Virus record (IMG/VR): IMGVR_UViG_3300028886_000061
Location: 73,635-113,809 of that record
Direction: 5' to 3' (one strand)
DNA from: a virus
Taxonomy: Duplodnaviria; Heunggongvirae; Uroviricota; Caudoviricetes
DNA length: 40,175 nt
Shown: positions 2,674-16,569 of the stretch, one piece after another
Position numbering within the stretch: the first letter of the stretch is position 1
Layout: each line of letters begins with the position of its first letter
Translations under genes and position numbers: made by a program
The notes under the pieces: generated by a model
Told to the model about the DNA's origin: nothing
Database searches by the model: none
The model's input: only the letters and a program-made list of their open reading frames with translations

Positions 2674-3930
2674 TTAGGAGATATGAGCGAGTTCTGCAGC
2701 GACTTGAGAGAGCATTGCAAGACGGGTTGGATCATCCTTGTACTTTTCGGTAAGTTCAGCGATTTTCTCTTTACGTTTCTCGATTTCAGTCTTTTCGAGG
2801 TTTTCTTTAACCTGTTGGCCTTCTTTTTCCTTGGCTGCTTCTACAGCAGTACCAATAGCCTGTTCGTAAAGTTTGGTAACGTCGAGACGAGTGTGTTTCT
2901 TGACAGCTTCAACAACCTGTGCGATATTACCCTTGGCTTCCCAAGGAGCTGTATGGTTAGTGCTGAGCATCTTTGCGTATGCATTTCCGTTATTCTCAAT
3001 AACAATAAAGCGATCGTTAGCACCGTTAATAATAGATACATTGTTAAGGATTGCAATGGACTTGAAGTTCTCAACAATTTTTGCAAAAGACTCGAGCATA
3101 GCGGCACGACGAGCACGGAGATTCATTGGAGTAGCCTGAACGAGATAATTGTTATTTTCGCGAAGTTGATCGACAGTGTATTCGGTGGATTTACCCTCGG
3201 AAGTGATAGTGCATTTCACCTCTTCATTTTCCTCATACACCTTATATTGACGGTTTGCAACTTCCATAAGAAGAGCACCTTCATTATACTTACAGATACC
3301 GCTTTCAAGCATAGAAGCAATCATGATAAAATCGTTATTAACGTCACGACGATCACACTCAACAATGGATTCTGCATTGGTCTTGAAGATGGAATTACCG
3401 GCGTGGAAGATATAAGAACCTTCGGATTCCACAACAAACGAAATAGGATGGATAGCTGTGTACTGCTCGGAGCATTCGACCACTGGCTGTTCACGATAAA
3501 CAGAACGTGCGATATTACGGAATGCCTCGACATACATAACGTTCTTAAGTGCACCGGATTTGATATAGGAGACGATCTCATCTTCCTTCATCTCAAGCAT
3601 AGGTTTAACCTGCTCAACAGCACGCAATTGGAGATAGTTACCAACGGATTGGCTATTGGAGATACCTTCACAAACACTGGCGAGTGCCCAACCATAACGA
3701 TTGGCATCAAGTTCCTCCATAATCTTATTCACTACTGCGGTAATACCACTATCGTAGGAAAGATTGCGAGCCTCACGGAGAAATGCATTCACGGTGCTGC
3801 AAGTTGCAGGATTGGCCACCACGAAAGCGCGATATTTATTAACTAATTCATTACCAAGAGCGGTCTGAGCCTTGGCTTCAAACAACTTACCGGAGAAATC
3901 GAGTCCGGACAAAACTTTGTAAACTTGCAT
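2674..3930 (-). CDS. Hypothetical protein (418 aa), C-terminal coiled coil, possibly virion/head-associated
   Basis: ORF track. Biased codon usage and an E/K-rich helical C-terminus; no family recognised. Confidence 0.75.
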   Translation of the reverse strand: MQVYKVLSGLDFSGKLFEAKAQTALGNELVNKYRAFVVANPATCSTVNAFLREARNLSYDSGITAVVNKIMEELDANRYGWALASVCEGISNSQSVGNYLQLRAVEQVKPMLEMKEDEIVSYIKSGALKNVMYVEAFRNIARSVYREQPVVECSEQYTAIHPISFVVESEGSYIFHAGNSIFKTNAESIVECDRRDVNNDFIMIASMLESGICKYNEGALLMEVANRQYKVYEENEEVKCTITSEGKSTEYTVDQLRENNNYLVQATPMNLRARRAAMLESFAKIVENFKSIAILNNVSIINGANDRFIVIENNGNAYAKMLSTNHTAPWEAKGNIAQVVEAVKKHTRLDVTKLYEQAIGTAVEAAKEKEGQQVKENLEKTEIEKRKEKIAELTEKYKDDPTRLAMLSQVAAELAHIS

Positions 3931-4024
3931 AGACGTAAATGTTTATTTCTTATGGCAACATTGCTGTTACTTTCTATATAATAAAGTTGATGTATTTAAT
4001 ATTTAATCTCGAGTGACACTTTCA

Positions 4025-4864
4025 TCATTGATCTGTTCTTGATACCTCATCGTCATTATAATGCAATGAATCATCATCTATAATTGACGTCTCACCAATA
4101 ACACTTACCATACCAATAGTGTGGGCAGTCATTGATCCGAGTATCTTACCATATCTTGTATAGTAACGTTCATGATTTATACCACCACTACCAGGAGTAT
4201 CTGCTATATCATCATCGTATGCATCCCTATAATAAGGACCATATTCGTCTGGAATCGAATTATTAGGCATAGATATGATAGCTGGACCGTATGGGAATAT
4301 TAAAAGGCCATCCAATGACACACCGTGATAGTAGTCAATGACACCCATATTTTTGTTCCAAGCATTTTTACAAGGAACGTTTTCAAATCTGGTATAGTCT
4401 ATATATCCCTCATTTTGAAATATTGTGATATATGGGGGTTTAAACGATTCCCACCATACACTACCATCATTCAGTTTCTTCCAGGTTCCTTCTTCGTAGT
4501 TATTTGCACAAATCTTAAGATTGTCATCTACTAACCTGATATTCTGTGTAATATCATTGAAATTGGATGTGATGGTCTTCTTTGGCGTGAGATTATCAAT
4601 GGTATAATTATGATCTGTTTCCCCATCTGCTGATTCACCAAGAGGACGCACTACTGGTGTATCATCTGCATCCACATCTGGTGTATAATCACGCACAAAT
4701 AATGAGAAATATGACATTACATCCGAATTATCAACCGTAATAACCTTGTTGGTAACTATATCCCATATATTAGGATTAGCTTTGAAATTAAGTGTTTCAG
4801 CTATAATTCCATTCAATGACATTGAATCCTTAAAAGCCCCTTCTCTTGATGTTGAATTTGGCAT
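4025..4864 (-). CDS. Hypothetical protein (279 aa)
   Basis: ORF track; co-oriented with neighbouring large genes. Confidence 0.7.
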   Translation of the reverse strand: MPNSTSREGAFKDSMSLNGIIAETLNFKANPNIWDIVTNKVITVDNSDVMSYFSLFVRDYTPDVDADDTPVVRPLGESADGETDHNYTIDNLTPKKTITSNFNDITQNIRLVDDNLKICANNYEEGTWKKLNDGSVWWESFKPPYITIFQNEGYIDYTRFENVPCKNAWNKNMGVIDYYHGVSLDGLLIFPYGPAIISMPNNSIPDEYGPYYRDAYDDDIADTPGSGGINHERYYTRYGKILGSMTAHTIGMVSVIGETSIIDDDSLHYNDDEVSRTDQ

Positions 4865-4917
4865 AATATATCTTTTTAATTTACAATATTAAATTGATCA
4901 TGCACTGGGAATCTTGA

Positions 4918-7599
4918 TTACACCGAGAACAATAACCCATTTAATGTTTTTGGTAGGTAATTTTTCACAGCCACACCTCCATATATTGGAGCTCTATATG
5001 TGTACTGATCATCTGGATTTATAAAACTAATGTAACCAACTGGTAATATGGTAATCGTGGTGTTTACATTCGTAGCAGATATTATACTTTGTTGAACAGC
5101 AGCAGCCTCGAATATACGAATATAGAAATCCACATAGTAATTTATTATTGTACCCATATAATCAAGAGTGCCTTGAATCCCGTGGAAATTACCAGAAAAT
5201 TTCCCAAACTTATCGGTCAATGCAGATACAGAACCATTTATTGCTGGTACTGATGAACCTTCTGACGCTGGCATATAGTTATCGGATGGGTTAGCAGTAC
5301 CGACTTCATACTCCTGAATCCTGAATGATGGGGTATTAAATACATCACCAGCTCCCTGTAATTGATATATATCACCACCATTGAATGTCCTGTGTTGTAC
5401 AGTAGGGGATCCCGAATCATATTGTACTGCATAGTATCGATTTTCACCTTCGCCATGCTCTTGAGACTTACATTTAACATGAGTATATAATATCTTTGCA
5501 ATAGATATTGGAATGTTATACTCAATCACATCATACATCTTTGGCCCATTATGGCGAGCTGAATCTCCTGTAATATTATTGGTAACGCCTTGTATTGATG
5601 TTGCAAAATTAATGTCTCGATCATACCACATACCCTGTGTATTATTTGGCGCGCTATAATTTGCCTGACATCCATACATTGCAACCGCCTTATGAATTGC
5701 TGTGTTTATATTTTGATTAGGTTCCCAGGCAAGATTGCCCTGTAATCCCTGTATTCTACTCACACGTCCAATACGGATATTAAGGGTTGTTGCCAGTTTG
5801 GTGTTATATATAATACCTTTTGGATCGTCACCTCCTGCCGTGTCACTACAATTATTAACATTCCTACTAATTTCACAACGAATATCCTTAAATTGACTGA
5901 TAGCAGCCATATGAGTATCCTTAATAGGACGGAATGTGCCACCCTGTGCAGTTAATTGTCCCTGTACCGTGATATTACCCTGAAGATATGTATCACCACC
6001 AACGGTTAAACCTCCCTGAATAATGGTATTGCCCTGAACACCAAGATTGCCTTGAGTATTGATATCACCCCCAACATCCAAACGGCCAGTCACATTAAGA
6101 TTATAATCCACTCTCCAGTCCCCAACGTGGGATCCGGATTCTGACCAAGGTTCATTCGTTTGACTTGAATGGGTTTTATCCATCAATACTGGAGATGTGC
6201 GTAGTTTAGTCCAGGCATCTGGATTCTGCCCATTTGGTATATCCAAATCACGCTCACTATATGTCATATGAGCCTTATCGCGAATTGTAACATCATTTTT
6301 GCAAGCTGGAATGTATAAACCACGCAAATCAGCATAATGGGTACCACCATTGTTCCAGTTATATATATTATTAAGATAGTCGCGAAGTACTTGTTTATGG
6401 ATGGCATCAAATATATTGTCTGACTCGTTATGAGCACACGATATTATCACGGTACCATTATCACGTATAATAGGGCGCCCAAGGAATGCAAAATTGCTGG
6501 GTGGATTACCTGTTTCCTCATCAGTATGGTTAGATGCTCCGTAAAATACCAATACAAAATCGATATTACGAATCACCACACTCTTATTGGAATTTGATGG
6601 ATCTTCCTGCCACACCAGGGTCATTACATCAACATTGTTGGTATTATCCACAACTGGTACCTGAGTACTGTTTCTCTCAACATAGTCAACATTACCATTG
6701 GTATCAATCACCTGAAGTTTGTCAATAGTGATAATATCGCCTGTGCGTGAACCCAAAGCCATAAGAGATTGAGGAGTATATCCATCACCACCTTTGATAC
6801 CTTGTGCAGTTACACCGGTTTGCTGGCCATTAACCTGCCAGCAGAATTCATTGACATTATCGTCGAAATACAGTTTGGGCACCAAGTCATTACGCCAAAG
6901 AGTCCACTTCCAATTTTCTACATCATCTTCTCCATTGTATTCAGCAGTACCATAAACTACAGTCGAAAAGTCATAGAAGTTCTTATATATGTCATTGGCA
7001 TTTGCATGATTTTTGATATAGCGATTAAGGTCTTCAATACGTCCATCAATAAACACATAAGGTACTGCGAGATATGCTTTACCATTATGTTCATCCACAA
7101 CTACGTTAACCTTGAATCCCTCATTGTTATCATCCAAAATCTGAGGAATCGAATGATGGCCACCCGGATTTTGTGTATCATCAAAAGTAAATACAGGGGC
7201 GATTGGCTTTATGGTTGGATCTTCATCTGGATTTTCAAGTCTATCGAGAATCCATTTCTTATTATGAACACCCTGCCAAGGATTATTGAGCCCATCATGA
7301 TAATCATCTTCAGGTCCATAATTATCTCCTTTAAAAGCACCATTACCAAAGATAGTGCTTACCAATCCATATCCTAACACGGATAGAGGGTCTGCATCAG
7401 GAGTGTCACCCAGGTTGACATCAATAATAAGCTTCCGAGCCTCCACACTATTTCCATCATTACCTTTTGTATATTGAATGGATATAAGACGCTCGAAGTT
7501 GTTTTTAACAGCTTTACAGAAATCTGTGAATTGCTGTGCAAAATCTCCTCCGAATCGTGGGATTGGTATACCTTGTAGGAAATTAATATTGTCTGCCAT
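4918..7599 (-). CDS. Large putative tail/baseplate or fibre protein (893 aa)
   Basis: ORF track. N/G/D/T-rich, with a short beta-repeat tract (NVTGRLDVGGDINTQGNLGVQGNTIIQGGLTVGGDTYLQGNITVQGQLT) typical of phage tail beta-helices. Confidence 0.6.
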   Translation of the reverse strand: MADNINFLQGIPIPRFGGDFAQQFTDFCKAVKNNFERLISIQYTKGNDGNSVEARKLIIDVNLGDTPDADPLSVLGYGLVSTIFGNGAFKGDNYGPEDDYHDGLNNPWQGVHNKKWILDRLENPDEDPTIKPIAPVFTFDDTQNPGGHHSIPQILDDNNEGFKVNVVVDEHNGKAYLAVPYVFIDGRIEDLNRYIKNHANANDIYKNFYDFSTVVYGTAEYNGEDDVENWKWTLWRNDLVPKLYFDDNVNEFCWQVNGQQTGVTAQGIKGGDGYTPQSLMALGSRTGDIITIDKLQVIDTNGNVDYVERNSTQVPVVDNTNNVDVMTLVWQEDPSNSNKSVVIRNIDFVLVFYGASNHTDEETGNPPSNFAFLGRPIIRDNGTVIISCAHNESDNIFDAIHKQVLRDYLNNIYNWNNGGTHYADLRGLYIPACKNDVTIRDKAHMTYSERDLDIPNGQNPDAWTKLRTSPVLMDKTHSSQTNEPWSESGSHVGDWRVDYNLNVTGRLDVGGDINTQGNLGVQGNTIIQGGLTVGGDTYLQGNITVQGQLTAQGGTFRPIKDTHMAAISQFKDIRCEISRNVNNCSDTAGGDDPKGIIYNTKLATTLNIRIGRVSRIQGLQGNLAWEPNQNINTAIHKAVAMYGCQANYSAPNNTQGMWYDRDINFATSIQGVTNNITGDSARHNGPKMYDVIEYNIPISIAKILYTHVKCKSQEHGEGENRYYAVQYDSGSPTVQHRTFNGGDIYQLQGAGDVFNTPSFRIQEYEVGTANPSDNYMPASEGSSVPAINGSVSALTDKFGKFSGNFHGIQGTLDYMGTIINYYVDFYIRIFEAAAVQQSIISATNVNTTITILPVGYISFINPDDQYTYRAPIYGGVAVKNYLPKTLNGLLFSV

Positions 7600-7616
7600 A
7601 AATATTTATATGTTTT

Positions 7617-9947
7617 TTATCTCAATCTAAATGTAACCGTGTATAATATTTCATCCACACTGTGGTCATTTGGGTAATCGAAATTATATTCGATCTGATA
7701 TATCTCTTTTAGCCAATGTTTGAACCAAAGGGATAGTTCCGTCTTATCCATCAATGTGGCAATATGATTATATAATAGTTCCCAGAACTTAAGTTCTTCA
7801 GTTTGCTCTGTATATGGAACCGGGTTATCTTCAAGAAATGTAGTGATATATCGTTCAGGTAATACATTGATACACCCATCATTTTTCCAAGTTACATCAC
7901 CTTCCCATCCATTATAAAAATCAGGTCGTAAAGTATTATCTTGTTCCGCAAGATATGTATAATATCCAATGCTTGGATAATTAGGATTAAATCCGGTCTT
8001 TAACATACGATTGTAATACTGAACATCCTTGGAGTTAATATCACCCCACTGTCTATATGGGAAGTTTATATTACGATAGTACTCGTGTGTTGGATCTATA
8101 AACATTGGACAGAGACGACCGGTATACCTCAATACAAAGTTATTCGCAAGGTTATCCTGATACATGTTTAATTCGGTTGGATGTTCATCACCAACAGGCG
8201 GCACCACCTCCGTTATAATAGACCTCGAGAACTCAATTCTATATGGAGGAATCCAAGCATTTGCTAACGCCTCAAGCATACGGAATATCTTAATATACGA
8301 ATTCATCGGGTTTGTATAAGGAGGTAAGTAATCCGATATATTCTTAAGTGTTGCCGTGGATTCATCTGTTGAATAGAAGTCAATCAGAAATGTTTTATCG
8401 TCCTGATTGTATTCGTATTTCATACCCCGATGTACACCTTGCCCGAATAGATTATCCATCACATCCTGATCAACTATTATATTGGCCATATATATAGTCA
8501 CATCACCTGCACCGATATAGGTTACACCATCAATCTCCTCTGTGGTTCCGTTGACATTCCAACGAACATCCATCATATTATAACGATTATTATTCAAGTA
8601 TGCAATCATTGAATCCTCGTTAAAATAAAGTTTAGAGTATAGGTTTTCTGGATGAATATGAGCATACGACATACGGTTAGCAACAGTCGCTACCGATAGA
8701 CCGGTATAATTGGTATAATGACACCAATGAGATGCATTGTTATATACAGTACTAACATCCTGTGAAATATCAGCTTGATCGTAATATCGTCCACGAATCT
8801 TATGAGGTTCGGATTCTCCACCAAGAAATACTGGAGCAAATCCATCATAGAAGTTATATATAAACTCGGGATTCTCCACCATTGACCAATGAAATATTGG
8901 TTGAGTGAATTTATTGGCCTGAACATAATCTATGATTCTATGGTCACCCAAATAATCATATACATTATATTCGTTACTTAATTCACCAGTATCAATACGA
9001 TATACCGGAATATTTGTATAGTTGGTATAGAGATCCTTTATTGGTAGGTAGGAATCATCATATTTTACCCTGATGGATACAGTAATATTCTTTCCCAGTA
9101 ATGCATCTTTAAGAAAGAATGAGATATCATCCATATTAAACACAAAATTGAGATTGATAAGTTGCTGTGCAATAATATGGTTTTCCTTGAAGTTAAACAA
9201 TAGGGTATTATCAAATTCCATCATAGGAACTTCCCTACGTAGTAAGGCATCAATGATGTATGAAATATCCTTTGTGGTATACTTTGCAGCATCCACCTGA
9301 ATACCTGTGATGAACGCCTCATCCGGATCAAATTTGATACTCAATAAGCTATCATCAACACCCATATATGGAGCTAATGATGGATCCGGATACTCGCTTG
9401 GGTCAGGGTCAATATATCGCGCACTCTTATTAAGGAACCCGGACATATAGGAACATAACTCGGGGGATAATGAAAATACACGGCGAGCTATATGGTCACG
9501 TTCTTCTCCCACCACCTTTACTGATACCTCGAATGAAAACTTTGAAGGGTCGGTTTCCTCGGATATCCATAATGGACAAAGAAATGAGAACTGTTTTTGA
9601 TACCTCTCAAAACGCATACGTCGAGTACCCATAATGAATACATGTGAGTATGGATCGAGATTATTTCCTCCATTATATAACCATTTATCACCGCTCCATT
9701 CACCAGCTGCTGAATAGAAATCATCACCCATTCTATCATATAGGTATTTCAGATTTTCAAGATGGCTATAATGAAGTGTATCCCTATCGTTATCCTCATT
9801 AAATACAAGGTTTTCATTCAGGGGTACTATATGTAATTCAGGAGTATCTATAACGTGCTCACCATTATCGTAATGATAATACAATGGTATATCCCAGCGG
9901 GCTTGGCCGGAAAGATATGGTGATGTACGTAGGAGTTGATATCTCAT
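7617..9947 (-). CDS. Large hypothetical protein (776 aa), possibly structural
   Basis: ORF track; no motif confidently assigned. Confidence 0.7.
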   Translation of the reverse strand: MRYQLLRTSPYLSGQARWDIPLYYHYDNGEHVIDTPELHIVPLNENLVFNEDNDRDTLHYSHLENLKYLYDRMGDDFYSAAGEWSGDKWLYNGGNNLDPYSHVFIMGTRRMRFERYQKQFSFLCPLWISEETDPSKFSFEVSVKVVGEERDHIARRVFSLSPELCSYMSGFLNKSARYIDPDPSEYPDPSLAPYMGVDDSLLSIKFDPDEAFITGIQVDAAKYTTKDISYIIDALLRREVPMMEFDNTLLFNFKENHIIAQQLINLNFVFNMDDISFFLKDALLGKNITVSIRVKYDDSYLPIKDLYTNYTNIPVYRIDTGELSNEYNVYDYLGDHRIIDYVQANKFTQPIFHWSMVENPEFIYNFYDGFAPVFLGGESEPHKIRGRYYDQADISQDVSTVYNNASHWCHYTNYTGLSVATVANRMSYAHIHPENLYSKLYFNEDSMIAYLNNNRYNMMDVRWNVNGTTEEIDGVTYIGAGDVTIYMANIIVDQDVMDNLFGQGVHRGMKYEYNQDDKTFLIDFYSTDESTATLKNISDYLPPYTNPMNSYIKIFRMLEALANAWIPPYRIEFSRSIITEVVPPVGDEHPTELNMYQDNLANNFVLRYTGRLCPMFIDPTHEYYRNINFPYRQWGDINSKDVQYYNRMLKTGFNPNYPSIGYYTYLAEQDNTLRPDFYNGWEGDVTWKNDGCINVLPERYITTFLEDNPVPYTEQTEELKFWELLYNHIATLMDKTELSLWFKHWLKEIYQIEYNFDYPNDHSVDEILYTVTFRLR

Positions 9948-10030
9948 ATGTCTTGATTTCTTTTATGTTACATCAATACAAACCAGTATTCAATGTTTAT
10001 TATATAATAAAAATACATTCATAGATCGTC

Positions 10031-11017
10031 ATGATTTCACTATATAATTATATCGTAGAGGCTATTTCATTGGATCTGGCTCGTGAATACGTTAAAATCA
10101 AACGTAATAAGAAATATGAGGCATATATGATGGCGTTCTGGGATGAATTAAAAAAATATATATTATCTCACGGCGGCAATGAATCCCGTAATAAGTATCG
10201 TTTATATCTACCATATACAGGACCAACTCCTAACGTAACTGCCGACGATACTGCATCTGCAGGGTCTGAATCGTATTGGACCACCAACCGTGAGGCCATT
10301 AAAAACATAGTTGCTCTTGTCTTGGATGAGCGTGGACAATGGATAGACCAATGGGATTACATCGGTGGTATTGTTGATGTTGCATTTAAGGACCAACAAG
10401 GAAACGTCAAAGTACGTAAGGGTCAAAAGATTGGTAAACTTATCGCAAAAGATACTATCCCAACAGGCAAAGGTAATATAAATGCATTGGATTTATTTTC
10501 AGCTGATCCGGTTAGATTAAGTAAGAATATCAAATCAGCCATATCTTCAAATGACCTTTGGATTGTCATTTCCAATCATGCATATGATATTGCCGGCATG
10601 TCAACCAATCGAGACTGGACATCCTGTATGAATATTATAGGTGGTGAATGTAAAGATTATGTTGAAAAAGATATAGAATATGGTACATTAGTATGTTATA
10701 TCATTGATAAGAAAGATACTAACATTGAGCACCCATATGGACGTATCCTTATCAAACCATATAAACTTCAACGTCCAAACTATCACGGATTCCTTCCTTG
10801 TCCTATTGTATACTCACCGGAGGTAACCGTATACTCTCCATATATTGGTCTTAAACCTATTAGGGAATGGTTGAAGAATATATGTGAGGATATTCAGGAG
10901 GGTGAAGGTATACTTCGTTCATTGAAGGAGTTATATAATGATAATTTCCACGATAATGTCGATACAAATTTTAAGGGTAAACGTGGTAAGAAACCCGAAT
11001 ATACCCAATTTAAATAA
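10031..11017 (+). CDS. Hypothetical jumbo-phage protein (328 aa) with YDIAGMST...WTSCM motif and capsid-targeting-like N-terminus
   Basis: ORF track. MISLYNYIVEA resembles T4 internal-protein N-termini; motif ISNHAYDIAGMSTNRDWTSCM. Confidence 0.7.
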   Translation: MISLYNYIVEAISLDLAREYVKIKRNKKYEAYMMAFWDELKKYILSHGGNESRNKYRLYLPYTGPTPNVTADDTASAGSESYWTTNREAIKNIVALVLDERGQWIDQWDYIGGIVDVAFKDQQGNVKVRKGQKIGKLIAKDTIPTGKGNINALDLFSADPVRLSKNIKSAISSNDLWIVISNHAYDIAGMSTNRDWTSCMNIIGGECKDYVEKDIEYGTLVCYIIDKKDTNIEHPYGRILIKPYKLQRPNYHGFLPCPIVYSPEVTVYSPYIGLKPIREWLKNICEDIQEGEGILRSLKELYNDNFHDNVDTNFKGKRGKKPEYTQFK

Positions 11018-11055
11018 CGAAAAAGGTCTCAGGGTCTTTTTATAATTTATATACT

Positions 11056-11724
11056 ATGCCACCAATTATTGAAAATCCTATAGAATCAGCAGGTAATTCA
11101 CAACAATTACGAAAGCCGTCTTCATTGAAATCCACATTCAATCCTATTAAGGAGATGAAGGGAGATCAACGATCACAGGCTATTCAATGGACTACGCAGA
11201 TCCTTGATGTGGCTATTAAAGGTCTATCAAAGGGTAAACGACTGGTAGCTAACCCATTCTACGAGAATAATGTTAAACTTCTCAAACCAGATTTGGTATT
11301 TGTCCACACCAAGGAGGAAGCTGACGAATGGAAGAAATGTGCAAATGATATCTTTTACTTCATCGAGACGTATGCCAAGACGATGACGCCATTAGGTATC
11401 CGTAATATCACATTACGTGATTACCAAAAAAGGTACCTGCAGTTACTCCTCGATCATCAATTGACGATCTACCGCGCAGCAAGGCAGTCCGCAAAGTGCA
11501 ACTTCTTCATTTCCAAAGTGTTAGTAAATATTTCTACAGAAGATTGCCTATTAGCTAAAAAAATAAACCTATCAAATTATTATATAAATGAAGATACATA
11601 TGAAATACCATTCTATGAGATATGGAATTGCTGCGATACCTCATTTAAGTGGAAAATCAAGTATCGACTTTATAAAATAATTGATAAGTTATATGCCAAG
11701 CAAAAAAGGAGCAAAGTGGGTTAA
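11056..11724 (+). CDS. terL: Terminase large subunit, N-terminal fragment (N-extein 147 aa) fused to split-intein N-half
   Basis: DIFYFIETY...LRDYQKRYL...IYRAARQSAK matches the T4 gp17 adenine-binding/Walker A region, then switches to intein-like CNFFISKVLV and stops. Confidence 0.92.
   Translation: MPPIIENPIESAGNSQQLRKPSSLKSTFNPIKEMKGDQRSQAIQWTTQILDVAIKGLSKGKRLVANPFYENNVKLLKPDLVFVHTKEEADEWKKCANDIFYFIETYAKTMTPLGIRNITLRDYQKRYLQLLLDHQLTIYRAARQSAKCNFFISKVLVNISTEDCLLAKKINLSNYYINEDTYEIPFYEIWNCCDTSFKWKIKYRLYKIIDKLYAKQKRSKVG
11497..11724 (+). mobile_element. Split intein N-half (IntN, 75 aa) starting at Cys148
   Basis: Cys directly after the Walker A Lys; block A-like CNFFISKVLV; EIPFYEIW helix; ends at TAA with no block B. 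Confidence 0.85.
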
Positions 11725-12877
11725 AAATCCGGAAGACAGCATTTTAAGATGGGAGTATTACAAAAAACAGGATCCTTCCAGAACACAGGAAGAATGTGAA
11801 ATACTTGCAATGAAACGCCGGAAGGCACGCAATAAGGGTAGTGTGGAGTACTATGAACTACACTACCCTAACTTATCCCACGAGGAACACATAAGGATGC
11901 TTGTGGAATTTCAGGAAAATTATAAAAAGAACCAACCAACACATATCGAATACTGGATTAATAAATATCCAGATCTTCCCACTAATGAACAGGAGAGATT
12001 ATTCCACGATTATATGAGATCAACCAATGGTGGGTGTATCGAGTTCTATGAACGAAAATATCCAGATAAAACACCGGAGGAACGTCAAAAGATGCTCGAT
12101 GATTGGTTAAAAAAACATCAGGTATCTCAACCAAAATTGGTTGGTGATAAAAATCCAGGACATTCCAAGAATACAACCGATTTGGAACGCAAACAACGTT
12201 CACCAAAATGCATAGAGTTTTATGAGTTGAGATATCCAAACCTTTCCCACGAAGATCATTTAAGGATGCTCAATGAACATAAATCAAATGTAACTAAAAT
12301 ATTACAGGACCCTAAAAATCAGGTATTATGTATTGAATATTGGTTGGATAAAGGATACTCGATCGAGGAAGCCGAACAAAAACTAACGAATGAATATCAA
12401 AAACGTTCCTTTACATTAGAAAAATGTATAAAAAAATATGGTGACGAAGAAGGCCAAAAAAAATTCGAAGAACGTCAGATAAAATGGCAAAAAACACTGC
12501 ATGAAGCATTTGGAAAATCAAAAATAGCACAAAGTCATATAGCAAATCAAATTATTAATGATATTAAGTCAAAATATGATGGTGAAACAGAGTATCTTGT
12601 AAATAAATATTCATTTGATTTCCGTTATAAAAATATTCTTATTGAAATAAATGGAGATTACTGGCATTGTAATCCAAGATTATACAAACCGTTCGAATTT
12701 AATAAAGTTATTGGTAAATACGCTCATGAAATATGGAAAAAAGATGAATTAAAAAAGAAAATAGCTGAAGATGAAGGTTATTTGGTTTATATAATATGGG
12801 AATATGATTATAGAAAAAACCCAAAAGAAACCCTCGACAAATGTTTATTATTCATACATGATAATATTTCTAATTAA
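11693..12877 (+). CDS. Free-standing homing endonuclease A, Vsr-like/EDxHD-type PD-(D/E)xK, with N-terminal repeats (394 aa from ATG 11693)
   Basis: C-terminal FDFRYKNILIEINGDYWHCNP...IWKKDELKKKIAEDEGYLVYIIWE; about six IE(F/Y)Y..(R/K)YP-type repeats; KCIKKYGDEEG motif; start overlaps the IntN end by 32 nt. Confidence 0.85.
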   Translation: MPSKKGAKWVKNPEDSILRWEYYKKQDPSRTQEECEILAMKRRKARNKGSVEYYELHYPNLSHEEHIRMLVEFQENYKKNQPTHIEYWINKYPDLPTNEQERLFHDYMRSTNGGCIEFYERKYPDKTPEERQKMLDDWLKKHQVSQPKLVGDKNPGHSKNTTDLERKQRSPKCIEFYELRYPNLSHEDHLRMLNEHKSNVTKILQDPKNQVLCIEYWLDKGYSIEEAEQKLTNEYQKRSFTLEKCIKKYGDEEGQKKFEERQIKWQKTLHEAFGKSKIAQSHIANQIINDIKSKYDGETEYLVNKYSFDFRYKNILIEINGDYWHCNPRLYKPFEFNKVIGKYAHEIWKKDELKKKIAEDEGYLVYIIWEYDYRKNPKETLDKCLLFIHDNISN

Positions 12878-12937
12878 CATAAGTTAATTAAAATTTCCCT
12901 TGCTGTTTGTTATTTTATAGGTATAGGTAGTAATATT

Positions 12938-14566
12938 ATGAATACCCCATCCATAGAATATATAAGGGCACATAAATATCATCGCGATTTTTATTTGAAC
13001 CGGGATTTCCCTGGTTTTTTGGAGATGCTTGTTGAAAAATTTCCAGATATCCAAAATCAATCCGAACGTATTTGGTTATATTTTAACGACCATCCAGTAT
13101 GCCCAATATGTGGTGGTCGGGTTAAGACATTTATAAATTTCAATAAAGGTTACACAAAGTATTGTTGTCCAACGTGTGCCCAGAAAGACCCCATGGTGCG
13201 TGAGAAAAATGAAAAAACAAATACCATTCGGTATGGAAAGGATCATGTAAAACGCCGCGTGGAAAAAACCACGGAAACCAAACTTAAACGGTATGGAAAG
13301 GCTGGGTATAACAATCCGGAGGCTATGAAGTCTACCTTTATTGAACGATATGGTGTGGATAATCCATTGAAGTCTGACGCTGTGAAAGAGAAGGTCAATG
13401 AGACCAATATGAAAAAGTATGGTGCCACCCGTAGGATAGCATCCGCAGACTATCTGAAACAAAAACGGGATCATATAGACAATCAGTTAATCAAAAAATA
13501 TCCAGAAGTTATACAAGTCATTGACCACCACGATGGATTACCAATATTCAAATGTTCATGCACAGATCCAAAATGCGCCAAATGTCAGGAACGAACGTTT
13601 GAAATAGGATACTGGATGTATTATGAAAGGAAATTTGTATATAAAACAGAAATATGTCCAGTTAAAAATACCATATATAAGAACAAAAACACCAATATAG
13701 AGTTATTTGTACAAAATATTCTTGATACCCACTCTGTGGAGTATGTAACCAACAACCGTAAGGTACTTTCAGGTACTGAACTTGATATATATATTCCATC
13801 ACGGAATCTCGCTATAGAATGTAATGGTATTTACTGGCATAGAACGGCTCCTGATAGTCGGATTTCTAAAATTTACCATCATACAAAATGGGATGTATGT
13901 AGAAAACAAGGAATCCAGTTACTTACCATATGGGAGGACCAGATAGTTAACAAACCGGAGGTTGTCCGAAATATTATACTATCACGGTTGGGTATATATA
14001 ACGAACGCATCGGAGCCAGTAAGTGTAAGGCGCTTGAAGTACCAGTTACAGAAGCTATAGAATTTCTTGATAATAACCATATACAAGGCTCCGTCAATGG
14101 ATCCATCAGGTTGGGATTATATTATAAAGATCAACTTGTAAGTCTGATGATGTTTGGTCGTAAGCGTAAGGTACTTAATTCCGAAGATAAGGAAAATACA
14201 TATGAGCTTTACCGTTACTGTAATAGATGTGGAACCCAGGTCATTCATGGTGCAGAACGTCTATTTAAGCATTTCTTAAAAGATCATCCGGGATGTATAA
14301 TTGAATCATTTTCCAGCAACGATATATCTATGGGTGACTTATATAAAAACCTTGGATTCGATCTCGTTGGTGAACAGCCAACATCTTATTGGTATATAGA
14401 TAAGAATTTTCAACGCCATCATAGATACACATTCCGTAAAGATATTCTTGTAAAAAACGGAGCAGATCCAAATATGACTGAGTTTGAGATAACTGATAAT
14501 ATGGGGCTGTATAGGATATACGACTCAGGACAACAAAAATGGAGATATGATAAGACTTCTAATTAA
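12938..14566 (+). CDS. Free-standing homing endonuclease B (542 aa): Cys-rich/KYG-repeat N-terminus, Vsr-like nuclease domain, Hef-like C-terminal domain
   Basis: CPICG...YCCPTC; repeated RYG/KYG units; ELDIYIPSRNLAIECNGIYWH...IQLLTIWEDQ; C-terminal FLDNNHIQG...LGLYYKDQLVSLMMFG...YELYRYC...YRIYDSGQQKW resembles phage Hef-like endonucleases. Confidence 0.85.
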   Translation: MNTPSIEYIRAHKYHRDFYLNRDFPGFLEMLVEKFPDIQNQSERIWLYFNDHPVCPICGGRVKTFINFNKGYTKYCCPTCAQKDPMVREKNEKTNTIRYGKDHVKRRVEKTTETKLKRYGKAGYNNPEAMKSTFIERYGVDNPLKSDAVKEKVNETNMKKYGATRRIASADYLKQKRDHIDNQLIKKYPEVIQVIDHHDGLPIFKCSCTDPKCAKCQERTFEIGYWMYYERKFVYKTEICPVKNTIYKNKNTNIELFVQNILDTHSVEYVTNNRKVLSGTELDIYIPSRNLAIECNGIYWHRTAPDSRISKIYHHTKWDVCRKQGIQLLTIWEDQIVNKPEVVRNIILSRLGIYNERIGASKCKALEVPVTEAIEFLDNNHIQGSVNGSIRLGLYYKDQLVSLMMFGRKRKVLNSEDKENTYELYRYCNRCGTQVIHGAERLFKHFLKDHPGCIIESFSSNDISMGDLYKNLGFDLVGEQPTSYWYIDKNFQRHHRYTFRKDILVKNGADPNMTEFEITDNMGLYRIYDSGQQKWRYDKTSN

Positions 14567-14954
14567 CATACTAATATTTATAATTGGTTTTATCGACCGA
14601 TTCGAAAAGGATGACGAAAAGATAATTAAGTCGTTCGATCTTAACGGTGTCGAAGTGAAGACGGATACCGGTTGGCAACCAGTATCCCAGATTCATATGA
14701 CTAAACCGTTCTCCATATATACTGTTAGCACCAAGGACTATGAACTATCAGGTGCGGATACCCATATATGTTACGATGAACTTTTTAACGAAAAGTTCCT
14801 TAAAGATTTTCATGTCGGTGACTATATAATGACTATCGATGGACCACAGCTCGTCCATAAGGTGACAAAGAATCCAACCAAGGTGTGTATGTGTGATATA
14901 TCGGTTGAATCCGAAGATCACCGTTATTACACCAACGGTATTCTCTCACACAAT
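14547..14954 (+). mobile_element. Split intein C-half (IntC, 136 aa) ending His-Asn, with Thr at +1
   Basis: VEVKTDTGWQPV (N2-like), SGADTH (block B-like), MCDISVESEDHRYYTNGILSHN|T (blocks F/G). Confidence 0.9.
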
Positions 14955-16502
14955 ACCACATCTTCTGCTATGTTCTTACTTTGGTATATCCTATTTAATA
15001 CGGATAAAAATGCCATTGTATTAGGTAATAAGGGCAAAACAGCTAAGGAAATTTTATCCAAAGTTAAACAGGTATTCCTCGAAGTACCTCACTTCCTCAA
15101 ACCCGGTGTGGAGAAGTGGAATGAAAACGAGGTGGTATTTGATAATGGATGTCGTATCCTTACAGAAACCACCGTTGCAGAACCTGCTATCGGTTTCACA
15201 TTGCACTGTGTATTGCTTGACGAGTTCGCCCATATTGCACCAAATATCCAGGAGCCGTTCTACTCCAATATCTTCCCAACCATTGATGCAGCAAACGCAA
15301 AACTTATGATTACCTCAACCCAGAACGGTCCGGATCTGTTCTGTCGTTTATTCGTTGGTGCCGAGAATGGTGAAAATGACTTCGCTCCATTTACCACCAA
15401 CTGGGACGAGGTGCCTAACTGGAACAAGGAGAAGAAATGTTGGGAGAAACGTGATGAGGAATGGCGTAGACGTAAGGTGGCAAACCTCGGTTCAGAAGAA
15501 GCATTCAATGAACAATATGGATGTGACTTCGCGGTGGCCACCAACGCACTTATCCCACAACGTTATCTTACTAAAAATCAACGGTTTGTTAAACACTTCG
15601 TTAATAAGGAAATACTTGGAGTATCACATGCGGATTGCTTCTTCTGGGATCCGGATTACGACCCAATGGATTTACGAAAAGACTATGTGGTGTTCACGAC
15701 CGATATTGCCACTGGCGTGCAAGAGGACTACACCAACGTACAGATCAATAAGTTAATAGGAGTGGACGAGGAGCGCAAACCAATATTTAAGGTTATTGGA
15801 TATTTCCGTACCAATATCCTGGATGATAATGAATGTTGTCGTTCGATAGCCGAGTTTATAAATCTATACTGTCACCACGATAGATACCTATATAGTTTTG
15901 AGAGCAACCTCTATGGTGACCTGTGGAAATCCAACTTCAAGCAACTTGCTGATGTGGAGTTCACTACAAACTTCACTATGGATAACTTCATTAAATTCTA
16001 TAACGAGGCACTTACCAGATTCCGTTATGGTGTTCAGATAACCTATAAATCGAAGCAGCTCGGTTGTAAACTCTTCCGTAATGCATATACCAAAGGAACC
16101 ATCATTAATCACTCCCATATATTCTTCAATGAACTTAAGTGTTTCTGTGATAAGAATGGTAACGGTACGTACGCTGCTATCTACGGGCATGATGATACCG
16201 TTATGTCACAGATTCAGTTGCCACTTATATACGACACCATCCAATTTAAGGAGTTCCTCGAAGAATTCATTGCAAATACCGGTGCGGAAGATAAGGGTCA
16301 AAATGAGAACTTCTATCAGGATATCCAACCAGAAGGATCCGGTAGAATCCAATCACCGGCCGAGTTGATGCAGATACGTGAATTTGCACCCTCATCGTTC
16401 GCTCAATTACGTCAAAATAATCAAAATAATCAAAGTGATATCATTTATGGAGTACCGCAAATGGGTAACATAGGAGAGGGTGGTACATTATATGATTTTT
16501 GA
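14547..16502 (+). CDS. terL: Split-intein C-half fused to terminase large subunit C-terminal fragment (rest of ATPase plus RNase H-like nuclease)
   Basis: After SHN the protein resumes TTSSAMFLLWYILFN...LGNKGKTAKEIL; Walker B VLLDEFAHI; ITSTQNG motif III; FNEQYGCDF; nuclease DIATG...DY...GHDDTVMS. Confidence 0.93.
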   Translation: MIRLLINILIFIIGFIDRFEKDDEKIIKSFDLNGVEVKTDTGWQPVSQIHMTKPFSIYTVSTKDYELSGADTHICYDELFNEKFLKDFHVGDYIMTIDGPQLVHKVTKNPTKVCMCDISVESEDHRYYTNGILSHNTTSSAMFLLWYILFNTDKNAIVLGNKGKTAKEILSKVKQVFLEVPHFLKPGVEKWNENEVVFDNGCRILTETTVAEPAIGFTLHCVLLDEFAHIAPNIQEPFYSNIFPTIDAANAKLMITSTQNGPDLFCRLFVGAENGENDFAPFTTNWDEVPNWNKEKKCWEKRDEEWRRRKVANLGSEEAFNEQYGCDFAVATNALIPQRYLTKNQRFVKHFVNKEILGVSHADCFFWDPDYDPMDLRKDYVVFTTDIATGVQEDYTNVQINKLIGVDEERKPIFKVIGYFRTNILDDNECCRSIAEFINLYCHHDRYLYSFESNLYGDLWKSNFKQLADVEFTTNFTMDNFIKFYNEALTRFRYGVQITYKSKQLGCKLFRNAYTKGTIINHSHIFFNELKCFCDKNGNGTYAAIYGHDDTVMSQIQLPLIYDTIQFKEFLEEFIANTGAEDKGQNENFYQDIQPEGSGRIQSPAELMQIREFAPSSFAQLRQNNQNNQSDIIYGVPQMGNIGEGGTLYDF

Positions 16503-16526
16503 TGGATAATTCGCTCCCTAATAAAA

Positions 16527-16569
16527 GATCTCACCGTCCCTTAATAGTTATACAGGGGACGGTGAGATC
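16527..16569. repeat. Dispersed palindrome family, copy 1 (14-bp stem, 15-nt loop)
   Basis: GATCTCACCGTCCC-TTAATAGTTATACAG-GGGACGGTGAGATC. Confidence 0.85.

Follow-up and report, generated by a model that had tools for sequence, protein, structure and literature searches.

A terL gene of a rumen phage fractured by an atypically split P-loop intein and two predicted homing endonuclease genes

Genes fractured by split inteins were described by Dassa, London, Stoddard, Schueler-Furman and Pietrokovski in 2009, whose account includes a single gp17-like "Terminase" locus from Lake Gatun (PMC2677866). The EDxHD (Vsr-like) homing endonuclease family was discovered in such fractured genes (PMC3239194). 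Related split inteins in terminases are represented by AceL-TerL, GOS-TerL and the consensus intein Cat (6DSL), reported by Thiel 2014, Bachmann and Mootz 2015 and Stevens 2018 (as summarized in PMC11766414). Here we analyzed a window of 40,175 nucleotides from a rumen phage, in which the DNA-packaging motor gene terL is encoded as two separate proteins. This split-intein terL belongs to the published kind, which is very common in uncultured phages.

Anatomy of the locus

All features described below lie on the plus strand. The first terL reading frame (11056-11724; 222 aa) starts with the N-extein (11056..11496; residues 1-147), which ends in the first half of Walker A (...AARQSAK) and matches the TerL family phrog_5989 (E 2.7e-17). 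The second reading frame (14547-16502; 651 aa) lies 2823 nt downstream and has 136 aa up to GILSHN, then TTSSAMFL. These boundaries agree with the initial annotation, according to which terL-N ends in RAARQSAK followed by a Cys, 74 more residues and a stop, and a second ORF about 2.8 kb further on carries 136 aa to SHN and then TTSSAMFL. The C-extein (14955..16502; 515 aa from Thr+1) opens with the second half of Walker A and continues with Walker B (LLDEF), the remaining ATPase and the C-terminal part. It matches PF03237 (E 1.1e-9) as well as phrog terminase families, and its alignment to T4 gp17 begins one residue after the Walker A lysine. A supposed second interruption within TerL-C (around residues 290-306, seen in many loci) was rejected as a second intein, being an in-frame insertion of about 87 aa.

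The inserted element, made of IntN, two endonuclease genes (HEG1 and HEG2) and IntC, occupies 11497-14954 (3458 bp) and cuts between the Lys and Thr of Walker A. IntN (11497..11724) consists of 75 aa from Cys1 plus the TAA stop; within it are the block A strands and two helices, one of them short (YEIPFYEIWN), the other basic and C-terminal at about residues 198-219 (bases 11647-11712). IntC (14547..14954; 136 aa) contains blocks B, F and G: an N-terminal hydrophobic helix (residues 2-17) is followed by block B (ADTH, residues 70-73, 14754-14765) and by blocks F and G, which end in SHN (14946-14954). The IntC ATG has a GGAG 2 nt upstream, and IntC overlaps the end of HEG2 by 20 nt.

The two ORFs between the halves are intact, in line with the two homing endonuclease genes claimed there initially. 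HEG1 (11693..12877; 394 aa from ATG, or 398 aa from a TTG at 11681) starts 32 nt inside the end of IntN, overlapping its stop. Its N-terminal part is built of repeated helix-turn-helix-like modules and its C-terminal part carries a Vsr-like nuclease motif (IEINGDYWH ... IWE); the protein matches phrog_22677 (E 3e-15) and, weakly, PF18741. HEG2 (12938..14566; 542 aa) matches the homing endonuclease family phrog_3339 (E 1.2e-105) and combines an EDxHD/Vsr-like nuclease core with a Zn-ribbon, DUF7487 repeats and, at the C-terminus, a Mom-like domain. It also matches PF24308 (E 9e-11) and, below the cut-off, PF03852 Vsr (E 0.004); its core matches I-Bth0305I (PDB 3r3p; E 8.7e-4). The nuclease motif is common to both proteins (E 0.005). 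From these similarities, HEG1 and HEG2 are predicted to be Vsr-like/EDxHD homing endonucleases, free-standing between the halves. A scan for the T4-type late promoter TATAAATA gave 9 sites against 6.3 expected, none usefully placed for the halves, and scans for sigma-70 and terminator signals gave results equal or close to those from shuffled sequence.

Intein identity, insertion site and distribution

Cys148, position 1 of the intein, directly follows the Walker A Lys147, as class 1 inteins require, and RQxGK-C is present in nearly all relatives, split and contiguous. Block B reads A-D-T-H; its His is invariant, and Ala replaces Thr throughout the family, as it does in VidaL when aligned. Blocks F and G read MCD...HRYYTNGILSHN, followed by T, with D117, H135 and N136 invariant across 12 split homologues. 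The residues proposed to carry out splicing are all kept in this intein, and the catalytic columns are invariant in the 12 homologues. In phmmer searches against PDB, the best match of IntC was CatC (6dsl_B, E 1.3e-5), with VidaL at E 9.5e-4; the IntN region matched only RopB, at chance level, and CatN was not found. A profile of the family matched inteins only (VidaL 3e-14, gp41-1 1e-11, CatC 2e-9). In the comparison with intein models and known terminase inteins proposed initially, CatC was recovered with IntC, and at E up to 0.1 Pfam intein models matched neither of the two halves in the window. On one relative (P0039), PF14890 scored 29.6 bits, under its cut-off of 35.8; several homologues have precomputed PF14890 matches. 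The lineage is divergent, and its membership among inteins is assigned by sequence from the PDB matches. An AlphaFold2 model of the contiguous relative P0023 (pLDDT 82.4, pTM 0.79) has a predicted HINT fold, and its top 50 Foldseek matches in PDB are all inteins or HINT domains.

Joining the N-extein (147 aa) and C-extein (515 aa) in silico gives 662 aa. As had been claimed, the join restores Walker A: the product aligns without gaps, at 99.4% identity, to the natural intein-free TerL P0084 of a sister phage with flanking genes in the same order. An intein-free relative (L005) is 94.0% identical in nucleotides up to base 11496 and 94.8% from 14955, and DNA alignment to it sets the breakpoints at exactly 11496/11497 and 14954/14955. 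Several relatives, among them P0023 (73% identical), have a contiguous intein at the identical site, as does Ackermannviridae TerL; these inteins are collinear with IntN plus IntC, with a total of 199-226 aa against 211 aa here. Both the intein-free and the contiguous alleles that were to be sought in related phages therefore exist. In all, terL occurs among these phages in five states: intein-free, with a contiguous intein, split with an endonuclease gene, split with a decayed one, and split without one. Searches of GenBank phages for near-identical DNA returned none.

After block A/N2 and before block B, two helices form a hairpin, and its loop is where the intein is broken; in the P0023 model this loop corresponds to residues 77-81, ahead of the VxVxTDTGW strand. 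The finding of block B in IntC, together with a small IntN and a large IntC, is the atypical TerL split pattern, as read initially from ADTH in the C-half. The start of CatC aligns at about residue 27 of IntC, just past the extra helix. The halves are oppositely charged (IntN basic, net +5; IntC acidic, net -7). A complex model of the window's own IntN and IntC restores the strand pairings and supports their association, with an ipSAE of 0.81 (median of 3 runs) against 0.00 for the best of 3 controls; of 78 solved complexes 51 attained that mark, as did 2 of 108 mismatched pairs. Contacts were at least 67% in common between runs, and partner pLDDT was at least 69. The HINT core of this model may reflect structures that the predictor had already learned, since a like complex has been solved (6DSL); nothing in the aligned CatC sequence corresponds to the helix-helix part.

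We classified 84 related loci, 48 of which are split. A HEG1-type gene lies between the halves in 27 of the 48, and Thr+1 is found in 22 of 23 parsed split loci. The two-endonuclease layout occurs in L058, L061, L065 and L091; both endonuclease types are present in 4 of the 48 (this window and three IMG/VR loci). The split and Thr+1 are thus usual in the family and the pair of endonucleases recurs, so the initial description of the combination as unusual does not hold. IntN has a median of 57 aa (range 33-85) across the family. Split alleles free of endonuclease persist, with spacers of -1 to 206 nt; an example (L009/L010) is on a 157-kb contig at 57x coverage. In some relatives block G is altered, ending SSQ in L001 and SSN in L017. 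Carriers of the stretch were recovered in 13 studies, with dates from 2018 to 2025, and IMG/VR contains at least 581 related stretches, many of them split.

Purifying selection acts on the two intein halves as well as on the two endonuclease genes, with dN/dS against L091 of 0.10 for IntN, 0.078 for IntC, 0.069 for HEG1 and 0.107 for HEG2. In a quick IQ-TREE analysis of the intein, in which branches were counted only at SH-aLRT of at least 95, the well-supported branches require at least 9 changes of state. The element is far less diverged than its host gene (pS 0.3-0.45 and about 0.85, respectively), which suggests horizontal spread of the whole fractured unit.

Proposed trans-splicing and alternative readings

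The split intein of this terL is real and probably working. The reading that we regard as very likely is that of a class-1 type intein at the P-loop site, broken in the hairpin loop with two endonuclease genes in the break, whose halves are trans-spliced, with packaging dependent on splicing. Two polypeptides would be made, TerL(1-147)-IntN75 and IntC136-TerL(148-662). Basic IntN would bind acidic IntC, its strands completing the HINT fold and the flanking helices packing antiparallel, and trans-splicing by Cys1, His of block B, Asp of block F, the terminal His-Asn and Thr+1 would yield the 662-aa TerL with Walker A intact (RQSAK-TT), so that packaging would depend on this reaction. The endonucleases presumably cut intein-free terL alleles, by which the whole 3.5-kb element would spread.

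The record is metagenome-assembled and relatives do have contiguous alleles, so the IntN stop and the frame changes could be thought to be assembly or sequencing errors in a contiguous or endonuclease-containing intein. However, contigs from an independent sample and study (X3) are identical over the junctions that they cover, and a strain diverged by 3-8% (X7) shows 27 substitutions but not a single indel where its sequence spans the junction of extein and IntN, the stop of IntN and the start of HEG1. The same four ORFs are found in a different assembly (L091), and about twenty protein clusters at 90% identity, from other assemblies, share the IntC start methionine. Independent contigs thus confirm the stop and the frames, and as far as contigs can show the error reading is refuted; we give it practically no weight. 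Rejoining at the RNA level, with 11497-14954 or parts of it as a group I or II intron carrying endonuclease genes and an mRNA encoding an uninterrupted TerL or a contiguous intein, is very improbable. Phage late genes are known to host introns. Vsr-like/EDxHD endonucleases also occur in group I introns (I-Bth0305I, PMC3239194). Against this, no Rfam family, intron or other, matched at gathering score in the window, nor any relevant one at E up to 10 in 11000-15200, no joints were seen in the sequence runs examined, and RNA-library contigs, which cover only parts of the locus and whose libraries can contain DNA, run unspliced across the IntN stop and HEG1 start. Both broken ends are moreover conserved as protein under purifying selection, and at related split loci the endonuclease-free spacers are too short for an intron.

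The halves might also associate without splicing, as a non-covalent two-chain TerL, or this copy might be inactive and the phage defective or using another terminase. The altered block G of the two relatives noted above could be taken to favour this, and at a CheckV completeness of about 40% another terL elsewhere is conceivable; none was found in the 114-kb record. An unspliced complex, however, would keep about 211 aa of intein within the P-loop, and published modelling of P-loop inteins in TerL argues that pentamer formation is impossible with an intein present (PMC5050341). The retention of every proposed splicing residue here and their invariance in the homologues, the strong selection on the intein and the presence of the lineage in many samples across several years also speak against it, and syntenic relatives have one terL only, at the corresponding place. 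We therefore consider both forms of this reading unlikely, if less so than an intron, and retain trans-splicing.

More tentatively, and with doubt, the helices flanking the break may form a built-in antiparallel clasp, so that the P-loop lineage would be equally functional in cis and in trans and would switch, within short spans of evolution, among the contiguous state, the split state with endonuclease and the split state without it. The helix on IntN is basic; the one on IntC is hydrophobic, with an acidic patch after it. Contiguous alleles have the two as a hairpin, and the aligned CatC begins after the second. The state changes in the intein tree and the low divergence of the element relative to its host gene point in this direction. 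If the clasp exists, this would be a natural Cys1/Thr+1 atypical split intein carrying its own affinity handle.

Significance and comparison with known systems

An essential enzyme made only if two proteins meet and splice would be a natural case of obligatory protein trans-splicing, and such terL halves should not be labelled pseudogenes in annotation. Most of the inteins on which the protein-ligation toolbox relies are of the Cys+1 or Ser+1 type; this lineage could widen it, as it has many natural inteins that are atypically split and use Cys1/Thr+1, with or without flanking helices. For the 2009 gene-breaking model of Dassa and co-workers, the series of five allele states is unusually complete (PMC2677866).

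As in the fractured genes of that account, a split intein cuts the host gene here, its halves flank a free-standing gene for a Vsr-like endonuclease, and all parts are on one strand (PMC2677866). Its terminase intein breaks at an "unusual point", which leaves a long C part, of 122 aa there, containing all N motifs but N1, likewise as here; alleles that lack the endonuclease gene are also common to both, and the complementary charges of the halves, proposed there, are seen here (PMC2677866). In contrast to the terminase locus as described there, which has one endonuclease gene, this one has two, and its intein has 75 aa in IntN and 136 aa in IntC, which includes an additional helix at its N-terminus (PMC2677866).

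AceL, GOS and Cat, as summarized in PMC11766414, share with this intein the TerL host and a split past the first strands, ahead of block B. Their IntN has 25-37 aa and their IntC 104 aa, so the 75 aa of IntN here exceed the short length that suits peptide synthesis, and their nucleophiles are Cys1/Cys+1 or Ser1/Cys+1 rather than Cys1/Thr+1 (PMC11766414). CatC as aligned begins past the second hairpin helix, whereas IntC here includes it. The insertion site of Cat is probably different, since Cat in 6DSL is followed by Cys-Glu and not by a Walker A residue.

The site itself is that of other terminase inteins. The contiguous mini-inteins in TerL of the Ackermannviridae phages Kevin (Serratia; XCN27914.1) and SD25 (Vibrio; XHB37310.1) are homologous to this intein, lie at the same P-loop position, between GK and T, and like it have Cys1, SHN and Thr+1, with 31-36% identity to P0023 over the region. 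The mycobacteriophage TerL1-a intein, at the "classic" P-loop site, is likewise inserted between the Walker A Lys and Thr (PMC5050341). Unlike the intein described here, those of Ackermannviridae and mycobacteriophages are single-chain and cis-splicing, without an endonuclease gene, and that of phage Kevin is also without the hairpin helices. Among endonucleases, the core of HEG2 resembles the I-Bth0305I/EDxHD family (3R3P), and HEG1 has the IE-NG-YWH ... WE motif too; both are larger, multidomain proteins in comparison with I-Bth0305I (PMC3239194), HEG2 having in addition the Zn-ribbon, the DUF7487 repeats and the Mom-like C-terminal domain.

The interrupted terL locus

The 113.8-kb IMG/VR phage record, of which the window is the last 40 kb, has a completeness of ~40% by CheckV, whose estimate puts the complete genome at ~280 kb, and contains a single TerL match. 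The stretch occurs in gut metagenomes of bovine and sheep origin, which come from 13 studies (dates 2018-2025). A portal gene and genes for SbcCD-like nucleases are among those near terL in the window. A conserved 328-aa ORF of unknown family (10031-11017) occupies the position where a small terminase might be expected, and is also found 5' of terL in the intein-free locus L005 and in L093, a close relative. It is followed by a terminator-like hairpin (11018-11045), immediately 5' of terL-N. No Shine-Dalgarno was seen for terL-N; the IntC ORF has GGAG.

Four plus-strand ORFs make up the locus: the TerL N-part (11056-11724, 222 aa), HEG1 (11681 or 11693 to 12877, 398 or 394 aa), HEG2 (12938-14566, 542 aa), and IntC with the TerL C-part (14547-16502, 651 aa). 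In the first ORF the match to phrog_5989 (TerL) extends as far as residue 148, and residue 128 of the fourth ORF is where it continues. The first ORF ends in RAARQSAK followed by Cys and 74 residues, the fourth starts with 136 residues ending in GILSHN and continues with TTSSAMFL, and the alignment of T4 gp17 to the fourth ORF begins one residue past the gp17 Walker A lysine. Both junctions, and the two endonuclease genes between the halves, are thus as the initial annotation had described them. It had also predicted a 662-aa terminase: the exteins joined in silico (residues 1-147 and 137-651) have this length, and align without gaps to P0084, a natural TerL from a different rumen assembly, with 99.4% identity over all 662 positions. 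The P0084 contig (L005) has the same neighbours as the window, namely a minus-strand 776-aa gene, the 328-aa gene and then terL. Window segments 7000-11496 and 14951-16534 align to L005 with 94.0% and 94.8% DNA identity; therefore the element spans 11497-14954 (3458 bp).

The search of relatives returned contiguous as well as intein-free terL alleles. P0023 (844 aa) has a contiguous intein at the same terL site, with 73% identity over the intein region, and P0096 (640 aa) is its intein-free sister with the same N-terminus. Ackermannviridae TerL carries a contiguous mini-intein at RQSGK|C...SHN|TT. Judged from these alignments, the terL insertion is exact and polymorphic.

Two other readings of the interrupted gene were considered. 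An assembly error in the IntN stop or in the frames, which the initial annotation had raised, was ruled out as far as contigs can show: contigs of an independent sample and study are identical to the window wherever they cover it, as they do at the IntC/extein junction and where HEG2 and IntC overlap; a diverged strain differs by substitutions alone from the junction of extein and IntN through the IntN stop to the start of HEG1; and L091, a separate assembly, has the same four ORFs. The other reading, an intron joining the halves at the RNA level, was rejected. There was no Rfam match to an intron at the terL locus and no joint in any run, and contigs from two RNA libraries span the IntN stop unspliced, a weak point because such libraries can hold DNA.

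Distribution among related loci

Our protein search gave 165 matches, which fell into split C-halves, contiguous-intein TerL and intein-free TerL, and at least 581 IMG/VR stretches encode relatives. We classified 84 loci: the best 80 of these stretches, the window and three reference loci (names given: L001, L005, L008, L009). The combination of two endonucleases, a 75/136 split and Thr+1 had been thought unusual, which was not borne out, since 48 of the 84 are split and four of these (the window, L058, L061 and L065) have both endonuclease types. Split loci with one HEG1-type gene on the plus strand were the most numerous (27); in 13 an endonuclease gene could not be recognised, and the spacers of several of these measure -1 to 206 nt. 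Two split loci carry a HEG2-type gene and one a HEG1-type gene, each on the opposite strand. A further locus without a clear class was not counted as split. Intein-free loci numbered 19 and contiguous ones 4, and in 14 the N side was off the contig or not found. Outside this set, L095 has one endonuclease gene. A quick tree built on the IntC part mixes split with contiguous states, and at least 9 changes of state are forced by its well-supported branches.

Several relatives differ in detail. In L093 (3135-3792), also outside the set, HEG1 has decayed into two pieces, one N-terminal (107 aa) and one with the nuclease (114 aa), and there is no HEG2; the intein is still split, a snapshot of endonuclease decay. 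The layout of the window recurs, with one endonuclease gene, in the huge phage LR756500.1 (L001, uncultured, 462 kb). Right after its split terL is a 270-aa ORF (5856-6668) that looks like the N-part of a TerL ATPase and contains a Walker A-like motif of its own (SSRQMG); duplication or capture of part of terL could account for it. The next gene is of HEG2 type (6762-8609). In many relatives (L019, at ~6906-7168, L022, L023, L025, L027, L029, L063-L065, L068 and L076) the ATPase domain of TerL is lengthened in frame by ~87 aa, at a point that corresponds to residue ~290-306 of the window C-half; the insertion looked like a second interruption in tblastn, a reading rejected because the ORF is continuous. 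P0094/P0095 and P0108/P0109 have identical IntC, although gene calls give a C-half of 738 aa for one pair and a contiguous protein of 932 aa for the other. Either a split/fusion change took place very recently, or the gene calling differs. In L077 (~4975-7600) the C-half ORF has ~476 aa ahead of the splice junction and starts with a Zn-ribbon, thus an endonuclease-like region is fused to IntC; its IntN has only 33 aa.

The intein and the position of its break

The best PDB match of IntC is CatC, the C part of the consensus atypically split TerL intein Cat (6dsl_B, E 1.3e-5), followed by VidaL. A profile from 18 contiguous relatives matched only inteins in PDB (VidaL 3e-14, gp41-1 1e-11, CatC 2e-9), and with the AF2 model of P0023:125-344 (pLDDT 82.4, pTM 0.79) the top-50 Foldseek matches to PDB were all inteins or HINT domains. 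The splicing residues are retained (Cys1, the block B His of A-D-T-H, the block F Asp and His, the terminal His-Asn and Thr+1), with no variation in the homologues compared. The Pfam intein model scored below significance on the window's own IntN and IntC, which makes this a divergent intein lineage. L001 (IntC ORF 3878-5764) and L017 end their IntC in GILSSQ|T and GILSSN|T, respectively; both lack SHN and its penultimate His, and in L001 the terminal Asn is replaced by Gln. The splicing chemistry of these two variants could be altered or reduced.

The P0023 model shows a hairpin of two helices (residues 58-76 and 82-94), which separates the block A/N2 part from the strand VxVxTDTGW. The window IntN terminates past helix 1 and IntC begins with helix 2, which places the break and the endonuclease genes in the hairpin loop, upstream of block B, in agreement with the earlier placement of block B in the C-half and of the break close to the intein N-terminus. 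CatC aligns from directly past helix 2. Relatives with longer in-frame inteins have their added sequence at the loop position too, and from these alignments the loop appears to be the endonuclease entry point of the lineage. P0093, P0091 and P0120 have contiguous inteins of 344-447 aa, with an extra 100-240 aa at the same atypical position. This added part has low complexity and is rich in Arg, Ser and Gln, as though an endonuclease gene encoded in another frame were being read through in the intein frame.

The complex model of IntC(1-160) and N(128-222) scored 0.81 (median of three runs; best of three controls 0.00), a mark that 51 of 78 complexes of solved structure attained, as did 2 of 108 mismatched pairs; the related complex 6DSL is already solved, so the HINT core of the model may simply reproduce a known structure. 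Runs had at least 67% of contacts in common, with partner pLDDT of at least 69. The contacts of lowest expected error join IntC residues 5-17 and IntN residues 201-213, two helices in antiparallel packing, and the aligned CatC sequence offers no counterpart to them. IntN is basic, at +5 in the window and +4 on family average, and IntC is acidic, at -7 and -4.

Endonucleases, divergence and known systems

HEG2 matches phrog_3339 ("homing endonuclease", E 1e-105), and contains DUF7487 repeats and a C-terminal part that is Mom-like, together with a weak Vsr match. The core of HEG2 resembles I-Bth0305I (PDB 3r3p, E 8.7e-4). Fractured genes are where the EDxHD/Vsr-like family, of which I-Bth0305I is the prototype, was first noticed (PMC3239194). 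HEG1 has the same nuclease motif as HEG2, and its type is the one between the intein halves in most related loci. Against L091, dN/dS is 0.10 for IntN, 0.078 for IntC, 0.069 for HEG1, 0.107 for HEG2 and 0.035 for the C-extein, values which speak for a functioning element. Synonymous divergence is far lower in the element (pS 0.3-0.45) than in the exteins (~0.85, saturated). In these two lineages the element is therefore younger than the gene that carries it, which homing would lead one to expect.

Taken together, the fractured terL is real and its earlier interpretation correct, with trans-splicing predicted from sequence and model. Among the fractured genes of Dassa et al. 2009 is a single gp17-like terminase; its intein is "fractured at an unusual point" and has a 122-aa C part with all N motifs but N1. 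The characterised atypical TerL split inteins are AceL-TerL (IntN 25 aa), GOS-TerL (IntN 37 aa, Ser1/Cys+1) and the consensus Cat (PMC11766414), and the K|T P-loop is the "classic" intein site of mycobacteriophage TerL (PMC5050341). By its sequence features the window intein is a member of this already known class. Unlike the characterised members, it has Thr+1, longer halves with a helix pair, and two endonuclease genes, and its insertion site probably differs too, since Cat is followed by Cys-Glu.
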